Of a DNA stretch of 4,475 nucleotides, positions 1 through 4,475 are shown piece after piece. Origin of the DNA: a virus (Duplodnaviria; Heunggongvirae; Uroviricota; Caudoviricetes). Position numbers and translations under genes: made by a program. The notes below the pieces were generated by a model that had not been told where the DNA came from, made no database searches, and saw nothing but the letters and a program-made list of their open reading frames with translations. The stretch is taken from the IMG/VR virus record IMGVR_UViG_2565956708_000012. One strand, written 5' to 3'. How positions within the stretch are numbered: the first letter of the stretch is position 1; every line of letters begins with the position of its first letter.

Positions 1-186
1 CTTTACAAAGCGGAGGTAATACACCGTAAGAGCTGGAAAAACCGTGCAGAAGTGGAACTGGCCACACTCACGTGGGTGGACTGGTATAACAATCGACGAT
101 TGCTGGAAAGGCTGGGCCATACTCCTCCGGCAGAAGCAGAAAAAGCTTATTATGCTTCCATCGGAAACGATGATCTGGCAGCCTGA
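1..186 (+). CDS. IS3-family transposase OrfB (integrase/rve domain), C-terminal fragment
   Basis: Open frame from window start to TGA at 184..186, translating as LYKAEVIHRKSWKNRAEVELATLTWVDWYNNRRLLERLGHTPPAEAEKAYYASIGNDDLAA. The WxxWYNxxRxHxxLGxxPPAE motif is a typical C-terminal signature of IS3-family OrfB. Confidence 0.85.
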   Translation, partial: LYKAEVIHRKSWKNRAEVELATLTWVDWYNNRRLLERLGHTPPAEAEKAYYASIGNDDLAA

Positions 187-228
187 GTTCACAGATAAAA
201 CACTCTCCAGGAAACCCGGGGCGGTTCA
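1..228 (+). mobile_element. IS3-family insertion sequence (IS629/IS1203-like), right end, 5'-truncated by window edge
   Basis: Frame-1 translation of 1..186 gives an IS3-family OrfB C-terminus, and the element ends at ...CCCGGGGCGGTTCA (228). The last 25 bp (204..228) are the inverted complement of 4382..4406, matching 23/25. The IS629 name is from memory, not a search. Confidence 0.85.
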
Positions 229-462
229 GAGTAGCTTACGAAGCTTACCATCAGCGGCAACCATGTTCATATGAACACAGTTGAATTTGCTAATCTGCTT
301 CATGAGTTTTGTTTGCTGCGTTGACCAGCTCATTCCGAGGTTTTCAACGATTGGCTTCATCGCAACATATGCAACTCCGGCAGCCATGGCGGTGATAATT
401 TGCTGACCGTTGAATGGCACGTAAGAGGTGTTCACTGCTTCTAAAATTGCTATACTATTCAT
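226..462 (-). pseudogene. ant: Antirepressor (Ant/AntA-like) N-terminal fragment, 3'-truncated by the IS insertion
   Basis: ATG at 462..460 sits 9 nt after a GGAG (complement of 473..476). The 78 native codons ([44 protein letters not shown]...) resemble an AntA-type antirepressor N-terminus. The frame ends in a TGA formed by the IS terminus (complement of 226..228), and Ant proteins are normally several-fold longer. The 528 GTG start in the ORF track is an unsupported upstream extension. Confidence 0.55.
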
Positions 463-545
463 GTTGGTTTTTCTCCACGGATTTACCGACAACCGAAGCC
501 CTGACTGTTCCAGCAGTTGGGGCTTCACTGTTTTGATTTCTTTGC
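463..545 (+). ncRNA. Putative sar-like antisense RNA covering the ant ribosome-binding site
   Basis: Extended -10 TGcTATACT at 448..456 on the + strand predicts a start near 463. The transcript would be complementary to the ant SD and start region and end at the 495..526 hairpin plus T-rich tract. This is inferred from sequence and the P22 sar paradigm only. Confidence 0.25.
495..545 (+). terminator. Hairpin with downstream T-rich tract (intrinsic terminator candidate, + strand)
   Basis: A 13-bp stem (495..507 pairing with 514..526, two G-U wobbles, loop ttccag) is followed by actgTTTTgaTTTcTTT at 527..545. The T tract exists only in the + orientation. Confidence 0.35.
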
Positions 546-694
546 CGCATCAAGCATCACTTCTGAAAACGTGCGCTTGCCACTGAATACTCTTTCTCTT
601 CTCAATTTTTCGTTCGTGCCAAATGATTCGCCATGAACAAAATTTGGTCTTAAAATGGTAATCGCAATCTCTTTGACTACTGCATCCAAGCGAA

Positions 695-847
695 TCACAC
701 CGTTACCCCCTCTCTCTTCAGGCTGTCTATCAGGCGCTTGATAACCTCTGAGTTAAACGACCTGCACTCTTCCTTTGCCCTGCTACCGATAGCATCCTTT
801 AACGACTGCGGCATCCTTACCAAAATCTTACTTATTTCTTTCTCCAT
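695..847 (-). CDS. arc: Arc-like ribbon-helix-helix transcriptional repressor (50 aa)
   Basis: ATG at 847..845 follows GGAGGG with a 5-nt spacer. The product MEKEISKILVRMPQSLKDAIGSRAKEECRSFNSEVIKRLIDSLKREGVTV fits the Arc/MetJ RHH pattern (basic beta-strand xVRMPxxL, then RSxNSE helix) and P22 Arc length. It lies upstream of and co-oriented with the ant fragment. The 883 start in the ORF track is an unsupported extension. Confidence 0.7.
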   Translation of the reverse strand: MEKEISKILVRMPQSLKDAIGSRAKEECRSFNSEVIKRLIDSLKREGVTV

Positions 848-961
848 GTTACCCTCCACGCAAACAACTCTTTTCGAATACAAAAGATAGCAAAGTGAGT
901 ATATCTAGTCAAAATTTTTTTGCATACACTTTGCTATCAAATTGAATACCAAAGGTGTTAT
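848..961. promoter_or_regulatory. Divergent promoter/operator region between the arc-like and mnt-like genes
   Basis: 114-bp intergenic region. On the minus strand, a candidate -35 TTGACT (912..907) and -10 TATCTT (889..884) with a 17-bp spacer face the arc-like gene. On the plus strand, TTGCAT (920..925) is a possible -35, but the matching -10 is unclear. The region contains the inverted repeat listed next. Confidence 0.45.
886..938. promoter_or_regulatory. Perfect 12-bp inverted repeat GATAGCAAAGTG ... CACTTTGCTATC (candidate RHH operator half-sites)
   Basis: 886..897 and 927..938 are exact reverse complements, with centres about 41 bp apart. The left copy overlaps the predicted -10 of the minus-strand promoter. 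Confidence 0.5.
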
Positions 962-1210
962 ATGGCAAAGGGTGTGTCAATTTCTCCAACTACGGTAAGA
1001 ATCCCTGAATCTTTACGCGAGGCTCTTGCTGTCAGAGCATCAAAAAATGGTCGCTCTGTTAACTCCGAGATCGTCATGATTTTGCAAGCCGCGATTGATG
1101 AAGATAGGTCGCCAAAGTCAGTTGAGTCATTTGCTCAGCAAGAAGCTGATAAATTCAAAGAGGCGCTACTTGAGACGCTAAAGACCATGTATGCTAAGGA
1201 TGAAAAATAA
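962..1210 (+). CDS. mnt: Mnt-like ribbon-helix-helix repressor (82 aa)
   Basis: ATG at 962 is preceded by AAAGG. The product MAKGVSISPTTVRIPESLREALAVRASKNGRSVNSEIVMILQAAID... has an N-terminal RHH (GRSVNSE motif) and a C-terminal helical tail ending ...LETLKTMYAKDEK, the same size and architecture as P22 Mnt as I recall it. It is divergent from arc. The 920 TTG start in the ORF track is an unsupported extension. Confidence 0.6.
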   Translation: MAKGVSISPTTVRIPESLREALAVRASKNGRSVNSEIVMILQAAIDEDRSPKSVESFAQQEADKFKEALLETLKTMYAKDEK

Positions 1211-1746
1211 TGCTGCACACAATTCATTTCTTATGCCCTGTTAACACTGCCACTGTTGGGCAACTTCAGAACCACTGTCTCACCGCATTATCTCAAGGCG
1301 CAACTGAATTAAATATCCATATATCAAGTCAGGGAGGGGAAACTGCTGCTGGCTTTACTGCGTATAACTTTCTTAAGTCACTCCCTGTTACCGTTAGAAC
1401 TCACAACATAAGCAATGTTGAATCCATAGCTAATATCGTTTTCCTGGCTGGCTCAGAACGTTTCGCAAACCCATTATCAAGATTCCTGTTACATCCTCTA
1501 TTATGGTGCTTTGCCTCCCCAGCCGCCGACCATGCCAGATTGAGAGAGTACGGGAAATGCCTCGATAACGATCTTGATCGCTTCGTTGAGACGTTCAATA
1601 TCGACATCGGAACCCATATTAGGTGGGCATCCCTGATAGCAGACTCGACCATTTTGGATGCTAACAAGGCTCTTGAGCATGGCATAATTAATTCCATAAA
1701 AACTGCAAGGCTGGCATCCAATCAGGCAAACTGGTGGGTTGTTTGA
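1210..1746 (+). CDS. ClpP-fold (peptidase S14-like) serine protease homologue, 178 aa
   Basis: The start overlaps the upstream stop (TAATG at 1208..1212). By eye the translation aligns with E. coli ClpP: NIHISSQGGETAAGFTAY vs YINSPGGVITAGMSIYD, SNVESIANIVFLAG vs GQAASMGAFLLTAG, LLHPL vs MIHQP, and LEHGIINSI vs VEYGLVDSIL. Candidate Ser/His/Asp triad positions are occupied. It lacks the ClpP N-terminal segment. Confidence 0.6.
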   Translation: MLHTIHFLCPVNTATVGQLQNHCLTALSQGATELNIHISSQGGETAAGFTAYNFLKSLPVTVRTHNISNVESIANIVFLAGSERFANPLSRFLLHPLLWCFASPAADHARLREYGKCLDNDLDRFVETFNIDIGTHIRWASLIADSTILDANKALEHGIINSIKTARLASNQANWWVV

Positions 1747-1777
1747 TGGGTAAATCATGATTACTCCTTATAAAAAA

Positions 1778-1796
1778 CCCACCTGACGGTGGGTTT
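1778..1796. terminator. Bidirectional intrinsic terminator between convergent genes
   Basis: aaaaaaCCCACCtgacGGTGGGttt: a 6-bp GC-rich stem (1778..1783 with 1788..1793) and 4-nt loop, flanked by an A tract upstream and a T tract downstream. It sits between the ClpP-like stop (1746) and the YafO-like stop (1795..1797). Confidence 0.6.
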
Positions 1797-2244
1797 AGTC
1801 AAACATAGTGTTTCTAAAGTCTCTCGCATACCCTGCTAACACTCTCATTCTATTATGATTGTTAGCAGACATGTGAGCTACAGGATGAAAAAGAGCAATC
1901 AATGAATACCTGTTCTCATCAAAAAGATTTTGTGCATAAACGAGAGCGGTATTGGATGTTTTATGCCACTGCAACTTTTGCGGTGTGCTGATATCTGTGC
2001 CATTTTTTATTGGCTCAAATTTATTTTCACCAATTGCTAAATGAAGGTGCATAAGGCCTGCATCTTCAATATCAGGAGGTCGATGATAAGAGGTGTCTCT
2101 GCCAAAATAGCTGGGCAACGTTCCCGTAGACTTGTAGATGATAAAATCATCTACAAGTGTTTGTTTTAAATCAGGAAACTCAACAAAAACCGGGGAGAAA
2201 AAATAGTCAAAACTATCCTGATTATATTCCACGGTTACTTGCAT
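1795..2244 (-). CDS. YafO-family toxin (ribosome-dependent mRNA interferase family), 149 aa
   Basis: ATG at 2244..2242 follows GAGG with a 6-nt spacer. The translation aligns with E. coli YafO as I recall it: DFIIYKSTGTLPSYFGRDTSY vs DFISYKRDGVLPDIFGRDALY, HLHLAIGEN vs HIHLANEN, ALVYAQNLFDENRYSLIALFHP vs HLVYCQGAFDEQAWLLIAILKP, and a C-terminal NNHNRMR...ARDFR vs DNNQMHK...AEAFR. Confidence 0.7.
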   Translation of the reverse strand: MQVTVEYNQDSFDYFFSPVFVEFPDLKQTLVDDFIIYKSTGTLPSYFGRDTSYHRPPDIEDAGLMHLHLAIGENKFEPIKNGTDISTPQKLQWHKTSNTALVYAQNLFDENRYSLIALFHPVAHMSANNHNRMRVLAGYARDFRNTMFD

Positions 2245-2252
2245 GTTTTACC

Positions 2253-2819
2253 TCAGTGGAAGTTACCAGAGTGAAACACACGAGTCCCGTGCTCAGCAAG
2301 CGCACGCAAACCAGCCATATCTACGGAACTATCAAAAACAACCGGAACACATGAGCGTTGTTTAATAAGACTATTCAGGTTGGTTACGGCAGATCTGGCA
2401 TCAGCAACAACGATATAGATATCTCTTGCGATCTCTTTAAAATCAGCAGAAGCTTCTTTGAATACCGATTTCATTGCCCCTTCAAGTCCTCTCAATTGAT
2501 GCTCTATCAATCGAGACTTTTCTGGTTCAATGATAGACAACACATTGTCTACATTCTCATCGGTAGCGTTTGCAAGAACACGATAAGCGTATTTCAGCAT
2601 TCGAGACAATTCTTTAATCGAAGACACCGCCTCATGAAGCTCATCATTAGCCCGTTCACTGCTGAATGAGGATTGATGGTAAGCGTGCTGAACGTTATCA
2701 GTAACAACCACCTCACAACTGAACGCAGAAGCTTGCTGTAATAGCAAACCTATTGCGACTCCAGCTTTGGCAGCGTTCAAGCTAAACATTTCATCAATCC
2801 CATTAGTCTCATTGCTCAT
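2253..2819 (-). CDS. Hypothetical protein (188 aa), upstream operon partner of the YafO-family toxin; putative non-canonical antitoxin or regulator
   Basis: ATG at 2819..2817 is preceded by AGGAGG with a 5-nt spacer. The stop at 2255..2253 lies 8 bp before the YafO-like ATG. I recognise no family. The TTG start at 2849 in the ORF track is less likely than the RBS-supported ATG. Confidence 0.55.
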   Translation of the reverse strand: MSNETNGIDEMFSLNAAKAGVAIGLLLQQASAFSCEVVVTDNVQHAYHQSSFSSERANDELHEAVSSIKELSRMLKYAYRVLANATDENVDNVLSIIEPEKSRLIEHQLRGLEGAMKSVFKEASADFKEIARDIYIVVADARSAVTNLNSLIKQRSCVPVVFDSSVDMAGLRALAEHGTRVFHSGNFH

Positions 2820-2886
2820 ACAAACCTCCTTCTTATCGGAGATTATCAATAGCTATGCATCCATTGAATACACGCTATGCGCAATA

Positions 2887-2915
2887 AGTTTACGTCACGT
2901 GATATCATTATGCAA
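2887..2915 (-). promoter_or_regulatory. Candidate sigma70 promoter for the partner/YafO operon, with a palindrome in the spacer
   Basis: On the minus strand, -35 TTGCAT (2915..2910), a 17-bp spacer, and -10 TAAACT (2892..2887). The spacer contains the palindrome TCACGTGA (2895..2902) overlapping GATATC (2901..2906). Confidence 0.35.
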
Positions 2916-2994
2916 CCACCGTTCTATCACCGACTAACTTTACTCCCACTCCTATACATCATCTGGTATCCTGCGCAAAACTAAGGAGGTTGGT

Positions 2995-3345
2995 GTGAAT
3001 GCTCAGTCTGTCATCATGGTTTTCCTTGGGCTGATTGTCGCAAAACTATATCCAGACTGGTGGAAAGGGGCATTAGCTACTGTCGCCATCTATTTGCTTT
3101 TATCCATCGTTAAGCGATCACTCGCTGAGACCGTAAATCAAGCAAAACGTTTCTCATTTAAGAGTTTAATAAACTATGTTACTGGGCTTATTTTTTGCCT
3201 TTCAATTCTGATCGCTTCGGCTTTTTTGCCCGTATCAATAGCTAATTTTTTTGGCGCACCATATGAGGTAGGTTATCTATTCTCTGTTTCCTGTCTTGCC
3301 ATTGCTCTTCTTTACCTGTGGACGAGATCAAAGAATAAAAATTAG
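2995..3345 (+). CDS. Small integral membrane protein, 116 aa, about four predicted transmembrane helices
   Basis: GTG start at 2995 is preceded by a strong AAGGAGG (2983..2989) with a 5-nt spacer. The translation has four hydrophobic stretches (about residues 5-19, 25-39, 58-78, 92-109) separated by short charged loops, with a basic C-terminus. The gene is AT-rich relative to the flanks and divergent from the partner/YafO operon. Confidence 0.6.
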   Translation: MNAQSVIMVFLGLIVAKLYPDWWKGALATVAIYLLLSIVKRSLAETVNQAKRFSFKSLINYVTGLIFCLSILIASAFLPVSIANFFGAPYEVGYLFSVSCLAIALLYLWTRSKNKN

Positions 3346-3362
3346 CCATCCGTGGCTGCCAG

Positions 3363-4381
3363 TTATTGAGCTTCTTTTTGTGATGCCTGTGCGACTCTGG
3401 TGAGCGATTGTGTGACCGTACTGATCGCTCTGTCATATGCTGTGCTACCTTTTGGCGTATTTGCCAGACGTAACAAGGCATTTCGTATAACAGGGCTTTC
3501 GTATGCCTTCGCAGCTCCTCCTACGACACCAGCAGCAGGAACAACAAACGCAGCCGTTTTTAGCATCCCCGCTAATACTGCTGCGTTTATGATGCCACCA
3601 CCAACTAACAATCCATAAAGCTGCTGACCATTTAAGTTTTGAACGTTCGCTTTTGCCGCGTGTCTTGTATCGTTGAGGTATTTAATAACGCCGTCCAGTT
3701 CCTTTCCATGTACGCCTTTAAAGAAAGTTGCTGATTGCTTCCTGTTCCGGTGTAACGCATTAATAAACTTTTCAACACTAATATTTCCAGACGGATCAGT
3801 CGCCTTATCTACAGCATTCTGAACTATGGCTGCTCGTGCGTTTTGCCTACCATTGTCATCCAGAAGCCTGTAAAGCTGAGAACGTTCTGATGGGTTTTGG
3901 CTAAAAACGAGTTTTGTTACATCCTCAGGTGTAGCCTTGCCGCTGGCTATTGCCTTTTGAACGCGCGTTCTTCCCATCATGTCATTGAATCTAGCCCATG
4001 AGCGATCAACCCTAGACATATTGGCAGCTTCTTCTGAGCCTAGTTTTTGGGATACTGCTTTTTTCATATCCGCTGTATATGCCTTGTAGACAATATCGCT
4101 GGCTTTCTGGAGCGTGTCTTTATCAACAGTCTCGTTTGAATTCATGAACCGCTTTCGAAGGTCAGTTCTGTTTTCTCTCGCCAGACGCAGGTCATTGGGT
4201 CCGCTGGTGATATCGTCTTTAAATTGCTGCAAGACTTTTACCGCGGCTCTATCCTGAGATTTGCCCGGGCGGCTTAACACGGCAATCTGATTGTCGATAG
4301 CTTTTACCGTGTTTGAGAGATCGACAGGGGTATCCCCCATAGCGTCAATTATGCGGTTATATCGCTTTCCTGCTGCCTCAA
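3363..4381 (-). pseudogene. Large protein, 5'-truncated by IS insertion; possibly a phage DNA-ejection/internal protein (gp16-like by synteny)
   Basis: The minus-strand frame is open from the TAA stop (complement of 3363..3365) through the IS junction at 4381/4382 and on to a stop inside the IS. The first ATG (4340) has no SD. The product has a glycine-rich hydrophobic segment (LLVGGGIINAAVLAGMLKTAAFVVPAAGVVGGAAKA). The gp16-like call rests only on its position relative to mnt. Confidence 0.4.
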
Positions 4382-4475
4382 TGAACCGCCCCGGGAATCC
4401 TGGAGACTAAACTTCCTGAGAAAGAGGTAAACAGGATGACTAAAAATACTCGTTTTTCCCCCGAAGTCCGTCAAC
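4382..4475 (+). mobile_element. IS3-family insertion sequence (IS629/IS1203-like), left end, truncated by window edge
   Basis: Terminus TGAACCGCCCCGGGAATCCTGGAGA (4382..4406) is the inverted repeat of 204..228. It is followed by an RBS (GAGG) and the orfA start. It has the same orientation as the copy at 1..228. Confidence 0.85.
4436..4475 (+). CDS. IS3-family transposase OrfA, N-terminal fragment (MTKNTRFSPEVRQ...)
   Basis: ATG at 4436 is 7 nt after AGAGG. The N-terminus MTKNTRFSPEVRQ is the characteristic start of IS3-family OrfA (helix-turn-helix protein) of the IS629 group, from memory. Confidence 0.8.
   Translation, partial: MTKNTRFSPEVRQ

Follow-up and report, generated by a model that had tools for sequence, protein, structure and literature searches.

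Cargo genes of the ant moron in an IS-flanked remnant of a P22-like Escherichia coli prophage

The ant moron of a P22-like prophage remnant

We analysed a 4475-bp stretch of DNA (IMG/VR record IMGVR_UViG_2565956708_000012; the whole stretch is referred to as the window), which is an insertion sequence (IS)-flanked remnant of a P22-like Escherichia coli prophage, and focused on the cargo genes that lie between its immunity-I genes and gene 16, encoding an ejection protein. Window bases ~227-4385 are 100% identical to the intact prophages of S88, APEC O1 and many related genomes of extraintestinal pathogenic (ExPEC) and avian pathogenic (APEC) E. coli. The intact copies in S88, APEC O1 and other strains are integrated at tRNA-Arg, and the region lies between the tailspike gene 9 and the ejection genes 16, 20 and 7, the gene order in S88 being tailspike, ant, arc, mnt, cargo, gp16, gp20 and gp7. 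Positions 962-3345 hold three transcription units in three orientations. The first, on the + strand, comprises a homologue of mnt, the immunity-I maintenance repressor gene (962-1210), followed by a gene for an N-terminally truncated ClpP paralogue of 178 amino acids (1210-1746). The second, on the − strand, encodes a 188-amino-acid all-helical protein (2253-2819) and, 8 nt further on, a 149-amino-acid toxin of the YafO family (1795-2244). The third, again on the + strand, encodes a 116-amino-acid membrane protein (2995-3345) and is convergent with gene 16. A convergent operon pair meeting at one hairpin (1775-1796), accompanied by a divergent gene, had been described in a first-pass annotation of this DNA, and this arrangement is present as described. 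The same annotation had placed the cargo between the immunity genes and the ejection gene, which is correct for the immunity-I genes and gene 16, except that the interval it delimited (962-3345) includes mnt itself. All five cargo open reading frames (ORFs) are intact and identical to those in complete prophages, their GC content is low (0.38-0.45), and the five-gene block is 100% conserved in about 47 complete E. coli genomes, which are nearly clonal (S88- and APEC O1-like strains). Because homologues at 30-80% identity keep invariant motifs, the five ORFs are real genes and not chance ORFs.

The position between homologues of gene 16 and the tailspike gene, the presence of mnt, arc, sar and ant, and a content that varies among syntenic relatives together mark the region as an ant moron, the name given to the gene 16-gene 9 interval by Villafane et al. 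(2008; PMC2629481), who distinguished ten types in sixteen genomes and described the interval as being in 'rapid flux'. The prophage types of APEC O1 and UTI89, with six genes, were listed in that study and drawn in its Figure 3. The hotspot status of the region, this prophage type included, is therefore already published and is not new; as it is textbook P22 biology, it leaves the understanding of these phages unchanged. Read in the same orientation, P22 has the layout 9(−) ant(−) arc(−) mnt(+) orf59(+) sieA(+) 16(−), which epsilon34 matches too. The P22 ant moron (sieA-orf59a-mnt-arc-sar-ant) and the window share the position between genes 16 and 9, the same core genes in the same orientation, a gene convergent with gene 16 at the sieA position, and a highly variable content. 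They differ in their cargo, which in P22 consists of orf59a and sieA and in the window of the ClpP paralogue, the 188-amino-acid/YafO pair and an unrelated membrane protein; unlike in P22, the ant and gene 16 of the window are truncated by IS elements.

To survey the site, we collected 80 P22-like loci from IMG/VR by means of the conserved head-binding domain of the tailspike, and gene 16 could be placed in 78 of these. Variability was judged by the length of the interval, by the presence or absence of named modules and by 12 families defined by a shared leader (see below); naive ORF calls gave 60 'architectures' in the 78 loci, which includes spurious antisense ORFs and is not a precise number. 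The gene 16-gene 9 interval ranges from 201 bp, with no moron, to 5159 bp; six loci have only the 201 bp. The exact gene order of the window recurs in just two loci, and the ClpP-like gene (15 loci), the 188-amino-acid/YafO pair (four) and the membrane protein gene (three) occur in varied combinations. The pair is found without the ClpP-like gene in loci L070 and L014 and with a different first-slot gene in L024, the membrane protein gene accompanies other cargo in L037, and in phiv205-1 the mnt and ClpP-like genes are 99% identical to those of the window and are followed by different genes. Of 5426 complete E. coli genomes, 128 have the ClpP-like gene, 55 the pair and 229 the membrane protein gene, in all cases on the chromosome. 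The proposal of a variable hotspot in the first-pass annotation is thus borne out by comparison across P22-like prophages, and the content is not universally conserved with structural or lysis roles. From its absence in many relatives, we infer that ant-moron content is dispensable for morphogenesis. Other cargo of the same site includes a SocA/Panacea antitoxin with a toxin, a PIN protein with a partner, a P63C protein and lipoproteins. The SocA/Panacea-domain antitoxin (Pfam 2.1e-24) is followed by a 140-160-amino-acid protein with a weak PADLOC match to NsnC (1.8e-7), and the PIN-domain protein is paired with a 239-amino-acid partner (L031, L066, L101 and L002:7572-8438 carry SocA/Panacea or PIN cargo). 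Toxin-antitoxin-like pairs are therefore recurrent tenants of the hotspot.

A ClpP-like gene, a YafO-family pair and a membrane protein gene

The product of the first cargo gene (1210-1746, + strand) belongs to the ClpP/peptidase S14 family (Pfam CLP_protease, PF00574; E 2.2e-11, 44.4 bits against a cut-off of 20.2), with a profile match that starts at profile position 37. It falls well outside housekeeping ClpP as defined by TIGR00493 and related equivalogs (19-40 bits versus cut-offs of 228-361). Among solved structures it is closest to PpClpP1 of Pseudomonas plecoglossicida (PDB 9UXT; E 1.6e-35 across residues 3-175). PpClpP1 is truncated at its N-terminus by >15 residues, has a Ser73-His96-Pro151 'triad' and forms a homotetradecamer with a 42.7-Å pore and a low peptidase activity that needs Ser and His; while not binding ClpX itself, it joins canonical ClpP in heterotetradecamers that enhance ClpX-dependent degradation (PMC12900304). 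The two proteins are full-length homologues (183 versus 178 amino acids), both without the N-terminal axial region; both keep the Ser and His positions, and neither has the conserved Asp at the third position of the triad. In the window protein these are Ser72 and His95, which are invariant in 26 members of the family down to 31% identity. Full-length similarity to 9UXT, a short N-terminus, the Ser/His pair and a non-Asp third residue thus place the protein in a PpClpP1-like class. The window protein, for its part, is encoded by a prophage moron gene coupled to mnt. Relative to the literature that we found, the link between a prophage ClpP-like gene and the structurally characterised PpClpP1 class is recognised here for the first time. 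Homologues at 54-57% identity are lone opposite-strand genes at classical moron sites, for instance between the lysis genes and terminase in lambdoid prophages of Klebsiella and adjoining gene N in Proteus prophages.

The gene preceding the ClpP paralogue encodes a ribbon-helix-helix (RHH) protein (962-1210; Pfam Arc 9.5e-11), which the first-pass annotation had taken to be the partner of the protease. This protein is 36-38% identical to Mnt of P22 and epsilon34 over 74/82 residues (P22 Mnt: 36%, E 7e-12, 82 versus 83 amino acids), and its gene, the first of the + strand operon, has the same position and orientation as in both phages, divergent from arc. Since it is Mnt-like in sequence and length, is divergent from an Arc homologue and occurs together with sar, we identify the gene as mnt and not as a private partner of the protease. 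The start codon of the ClpP-like gene overlaps the mnt stop codon by 1 nt (TAATG; 1208-1212), and the same overlap is seen in all 15 P22-like loci that carry the gene. The Mnt alleles upstream of it fall into four classes, with 98-100%, 64%, ~43% and 38% identity to Mnt of the window. So wide a range of alleles over a constant junction suggests recombination inside or just upstream of mnt, and the junction itself may be read as the use of an mnt transcript active in the lysogen, with translational coupling for expression.

The toxin gene of the second unit (1795-2244, − strand) encodes a YafO family member (PF13957, 3.4e-22, 78.9 bits against a cut-off of 25; phrog_1651, 1e-47) that is not an orthologue of E. 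coli YafO, as its 79 bits against the YafO equivalog (NCBIfam NF007377) lie below the cut-off of 153. A phmmer search of the YafO homologue against the PDB gave no match, and its AlphaFold model is poor (pLDDT 53.6). Immediately upstream, 8 nt away, lies the gene for the 188-amino-acid protein, a candidate antitoxin (2253-2819, − strand; phrog_8416). This protein belongs to no Pfam family and gave no match to an antitoxin or DNA-binding domain in Pfam or NCBIfam. AlphaFold predicts a bundle of helices alone (pLDDT 70), for which a fold search against the PDB returned generic helical bundles only (best E 0.06), and a profile search of the family against PDB sequences had no match. The family is small: at 50% clustering, 1.84 billion proteins yielded only 24 representatives. 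Its members have in common IGLLxQQ, QLRGLEG and, at the C-terminus, HGT.VF.SG.FH. The canonical YafO, whose partner is YafN, is related to RelE and acts as a translation-dependent mRNA interferase (Christensen-Dalsgaard et al., 2010; PMC2814082). The window pair resembles YafN-YafO in having a Pfam YafO_toxin protein whose partner is encoded immediately upstream in the same operon. In place of a Phd/YefM-like YafN antitoxin, however, the partner is a helical protein without an antitoxin domain, and the pair is phage-borne, whereas E. coli YafN-YafO lies in the dinB operon.

Both the pairing and the 8-nt spacing are kept in every context examined, namely in P22-like loci with different neighbours and in five non-P22 phage contexts, and each YafO homologue, at 55-71% identity, has upstream of it a gene for a homologue of the ~190-amino-acid protein at 34-36% identity. 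In this respect the 'toxin with a partner' of the first-pass annotation is real. The pair lies between the head and tail genes of a siphovirus in L018, between the Q antiterminator and holin genes in L020, and, in L021, within the tail cluster of a siphovirus as part of an immunity-I-like module, with a further context in L023. In the isolated coliphage HK639 it corresponds to gp17-gp18, where 8 nt separate the gene for a 190-amino-acid protein (38% identical) from the YafO-family toxin gene downstream, as in the window; the HK639 pair, in a lambdoid phage, occupies another site, in the tail cluster, flanked by the tape-measure/lipoprotein genes on one side and the minor tail genes on the other, and has its own conserved promoter and hairpin leader, which the P22-like copies are without. 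On the basis of these comparisons the 188-amino-acid/YafO pair is a mobile two-gene phage module that occupies several other moron sites in temperate phages, and its recognition as such, with a non-canonical partner, is new relative to the literature found. The 188-amino-acid protein probably represents a new family of antitoxins against toxins of the YafO type; a partner that diverges faster than the toxin and yet has a conserved C-terminus would fit an antitoxin role. The non-P22 copies (L018, L020, L021, L023 and L124) share a conserved block ~30-70 nt upstream of the 190-amino-acid protein gene, with a promoter-like TTGCTCAAAAATGAGCAATGGTATTA, then a GC-rich hairpin and a T-run just before the ribosome-binding site (RBS). 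The hairpin with its T-run, absent from P22-like copies, resembles a leader terminator or attenuator.

The two convergent operons share the hairpin AAACCCACC-tgac-GGTGGGTTT (1775-1796), which has a perfect 9-bp stem and a 4-nt loop, is preceded by A6 and, on the − strand, is followed by U6. Its folding energies are -17.6 and -18.8 kcal/mol (z = -1.9 on the + strand and -2.8 on the − strand), and on the − strand it folds better than 200/200 shuffles. It is a canonical intrinsic terminator for the − strand operon and a weaker one for the + strand operon. A candidate promoter for the 188-amino-acid/YafO operon, TTGCAT-17-TAAACT, lies at 2887-2915 on the − strand; in L014-L016 its hexamers are conserved and the spacer diverges.

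The third unit occupies the sieA slot. Its gene (2995-3345, + strand) encodes a small protein for which hydropathy predicts 3-4 hydrophobic helices, in agreement with the membrane protein of the first-pass annotation. The protein has no family match in Pfam, NCBIfam, PADLOC or PHROG scans, and tblastn against 50,697 phage records found no match. The gene is preceded by a PsieA-type leader (2964-2997, + strand) with an extended -10-like TGGTATCCT, the RBS AAGGAGG and a GTG start. Its 33 nt, GGTATCCTGCnCAAAACTAAGGAGGTTGGTGTG (2965-2997), are identical to those upstream of P22 sieA and of epsilon34 gp14/hkcB; the conservation starts with TGGTATCCT, similar to an extended -10 element. In the loci compared, the exact 33-nt leader has 153 occurrences and always ends in a GTG start (e.g. 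L003:4402-4422 and L004:6344-6364). In the slot beside gene 16, genes for 12 mutually unrelated protein families follow the leader; signal peptides, N-terminal anchors or several transmembrane helices mark 11 of these families, and one of the 12 is SieA, whose role in exclusion is experimentally proven. The leader looks like a conserved boundary of a promoter/RBS cassette, its promoter role being suggested by this comparison. Because of the leader alignment we favour GTG 2995 as the start codon (116 amino acids) over ATG 3016 as annotated in RefSeq (109 amino acids). The identity of the leader suggests that the stretch from the leader to the end of gene 16 is exchanged as a cassette, and would give the membrane protein gene a prophage-type promoter. 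The leader shared by a dozen putative envelope-protein genes is, as far as the literature found goes, recognised here for the first time.

SieA of P22 and the window protein thus have in common the slot and orientation, the identical leader ending in GTG, and their nature as small multi-pass membrane proteins. They differ in length (162-164 versus 116 amino acids) and have no sequence similarity, so that the likeness is one of functional analogy only. SieA blocks DNA injection; mutations that escape it lie in the C-terminal parts of gp16 and gp20, and exclusion was obtained from sieA preceded by just 85 bp, in which the putative PsieA lies (Leavitt et al., 2024; PMC10883804). In our survey the membrane protein gene was found only beside an S88-type gene 16, for which simple linkage is an equally good explanation.

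Several further features of the leader and the membrane protein gene were seen. The flanks upstream of the 33-nt leader fall into several unrelated classes, and one IMG/VR contig (L185) carries two sieA-type leaders 1.77 kb apart (2340-2372 and 4105-4137). Membrane protein genes 93-94% identical to that of the window occur in E. coli 042 (L245), beside a gene-16-like gene and with PerC-family, helix-turn-helix (HTH) and Doc-toxin neighbours, not mnt, arc and ant, and in O111:H8 (L246, 4962-5351), beside ykgL with no gene 16 left. In both strains the homologue is annotated with a longer start than either of the two considered above. Between the membrane protein gene and gene 16, a weak hairpin (3344-3357) has a folding energy no better than that of shuffled sequences.

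Proposed functions and competing explanations

Taken together, the region is very probably an ant-moron hotspot with three independent accessory modules. We propose that the three were acquired and exchanged independently and that all are positioned for expression from the prophage. The ClpP paralogue, translationally coupled to mnt, should accompany Mnt synthesis in the lysogen. On the model of its homologue PpClpP1, it may assemble into a tetradecamer that has a wide pore and a Ser-His active site but no ClpX docking, and could mix with host ClpP rings and so alter Clp proteolysis. The YafO-family toxin would be a translation-dependent mRNA nuclease, with the 188-amino-acid protein replacing the usual YafN antitoxin and most likely neutralising the toxin via its highly conserved C-terminus; the payoff of the pair would probably be abortive infection or prophage retention. 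The membrane protein would be expressed from the sieA promoter/leader cassette and most likely acts in envelope-level superinfection exclusion or conversion, in a manner analogous to SieA. These specific proposals are tentative, each ranging from doubtful to, at best, evenly balanced. A broader combined proposal is, on balance, unlikely. It would hold that the gene-16 slot is an expression cassette that swaps at least 12 unrelated envelope-protein genes at the start codon as an arsenal of injection blockers (SieA being the sole tested example and the 116-amino-acid protein of the window a candidate new type), that the 188-amino-acid protein represents a new antitoxin family and that the ClpP paralogue reprograms host ClpP, amounting to three new mechanisms of exclusion or abortive infection.

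A number of observations weigh against these interpretations. The third catalytic position of the ClpP-like protein is not conserved among the 26 homologues, with no Asp there, and PpClpP1 is itself low in activity (PMC12900304). The constancy of the mnt junction across four Mnt allele classes leaves room for a functional tie between Mnt and the ClpP-like protein. The antitoxin role of the 188-amino-acid protein is only positional, given that the protein lacks both a DNA-binding domain and an informative fold match and is about twice the typical size of a type II antitoxin. The possibility that the membrane protein is a divergent SieA was considered and rejected: there is no BLASTP similarity to P22 SieA, and FxRYPxEAxxFNK, the motif shared by SieA types A-C (Leavitt et al., 2024; PMC10883804), does not occur in the 116 amino acids. 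The first-pass annotation had also posited separate promoters. Comparative conservation agrees with this, but a simple consensus promoter scan of the window found only the Pant-like promoter (912-884) and none for the cargo, so that we infer the cargo promoters from comparative conservation only; expression in the lysogen and the functions of all modules are likewise interpretations. No protein of the window has a defence match in PADLOC-DB 2.0, the best being ZorA (0.0039) to a coiled-coil stretch of the 188-amino-acid protein. As no module matches a known defence family, the label 'effector' in the first-pass annotation stays interpretative.

The most substantial competing explanation, although improbable, is a dedicated two-component system in which the RHH protein would be the regulator or antitoxin and the ClpP-like protein the protease effector. 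The 1-nt overlap and the same junction in 15/15 P22-like loci across the four Mnt classes would fit such a system, as would the presence of the ClpP-like gene downstream of all nine window-type Mnt alleles in the survey. The RHH protein is, however, a full-length Mnt homologue in its canonical place, divergent from arc, and 62 of the 77 mnt genes surveyed have no ClpP-like gene downstream. Moreover, in 28 ClpP loci outside the P22-like group (20 of them from a reference-genome scan), searches with hidden Markov models detected no Arc/Mnt-type RHH gene within 1.5 kb upstream or 2.2 kb downstream, and the ClpP-like gene stands alone on the opposite strand. The partnership suggested in the first-pass annotation is accordingly not upheld. 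That all five genes constitute one multi-gene anti-phage system, as their closeness and the 100% conservation of the block in about 47 genomes might indicate, is a very remote prospect: the block is nearly clonal, each module occurs elsewhere without the others (L070, L014, L037 and L024), the genome counts are unequal (55, 128 and 229), and there are three transcription units. The first-pass annotation had allowed for either independent or cooperative action of the modules; since they occur separately and in other combinations, the former is favoured and the latter is unlikely.

Least probable of all is a role of these genes in the lytic cycle, in assembly, lysis or regulation. The ClpP-like gene might serve as a head-maturation protease, as it is called in the phiv205-1 annotation, and it has weak NCBIfam and PHROG matches to ClpP-related head-maturation proteases (NF045542, 49.3 bits; phrog_94, 7e-21). 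The NCBIfam score is nevertheless far below the cut-off of 120, the gene lies outside the head cluster and on the opposite strand to the late operon, its distribution is patchy, most P22-like phages being without it and six loci having no moron in the gene 16-gene 9 interval, and the nearest relative of solved structure is a ClpP paralogue of the cellular type. To our knowledge, P22-type procapsids mature without a protease, which also counts against a head-maturation role. There is similarly little likelihood that the region is inert debris of a decaying prophage with non-functional ORFs. Flanking IS3-family elements do truncate ant and gene 16, and strain SCU-116 has lost most of the prophage, but the five cargo ORFs are uninterrupted and do not differ from their counterparts in complete prophages, catalytic and C-terminal motifs are invariant over 30-80% identity in the family alignments, and the cargo is the part left intact in the degraded copies examined.

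An ant-moron hotspot with three independently assorting modules, which is the reading that we prefer, offers testable candidates. One is the YafO toxin that phages carry together with a non-canonical partner at several moron sites. Another is the prophage ClpP paralogue: its homologue of solved structure mixes with housekeeping ClpP, which suggests that phages may tune host proteolysis. The third is the sieA leader, a simple sequence handle for collecting candidate injection-blocking proteins. The modules occur in clinically important ExPEC/APEC lineages such as S88 and APEC O1.

Immunity-I control region and prophage borders

To the left of mnt, the window contains the remaining elements of immunity I. 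The arc homologue (695-847, − strand; Pfam Arc 5.1e-12), encoding an RHH repressor, is 39-42% identical to Arc of P22 and epsilon34. The antisense RNA sar (463-529, + strand) is present at full length (Rfam RF00262, 83.9 bits versus a gathering score of 43) and includes a terminator-like hairpin at 495-526, and ant, the antirepressor gene, retains its N-terminal 78 codons (226-462, − strand; Pfam P22_AR_N 2.9e-18), which are 100% identical to the start of the 300-amino-acid Ant of strain S88. As sar is full length, the immunity-I circuit is complete except for the IS-truncated ant. The divergent control region between arc and mnt (884-938) combines the Pant-like promoter (TTGACT-17-TATCTT, − strand, 912-884) with a perfect 12-bp inverted repeat, GATAGCAAAGTG / CACTTTGCTATC, whose arms (886-897 and 927-938) are 29 nt apart; the left arm overlaps the -10 of the promoter. 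By analogy with the immunity-I layout of P22, these repeats may be Arc/Mnt operators with a specificity unlike that of P22.

Between arc and ant lies a 57-amino-acid ORF (525-698, − strand; phrog_17642, 1.3e-43), the 3′ end of which is overlapped by sar by 5 nt. The corresponding gap holds no such ORF in P22, and other P22-like loci hold different small ORFs, including ones for Cys-rich, zinc-ribbon-like proteins of 67-74 amino acids. The arc-ant position would be a third variable slot inside the moron.

The left border of the window is the 3′ end of an IS3-family element (1-227, + strand), which removes the C-terminal part of ant and ends where the match to intact prophages begins (~227); at the site that matches window positions 1-227 in strain SCU-116, RefSeq annotates an IS3-family transposase with a programmed frameshift. 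The right border is the 5′ end of a second IS3-family element (4382-4475, + strand), recognised from the IS3-family annotation in related genomes and from the end of the intact-prophage match at ~4385. This element cuts gene 16, of which the window retains the C-terminal half (3363-4381, − strand; phrog_29117 and phrog_770, 'DNA transfer protein'); the S88 copy is named 'P22-gp16 family phage DNA ejection protein' in RefSeq. In SCU-116 (L125) nearly all structural and early prophage genes are gone around the IS copies, and the five cargo genes are intact.

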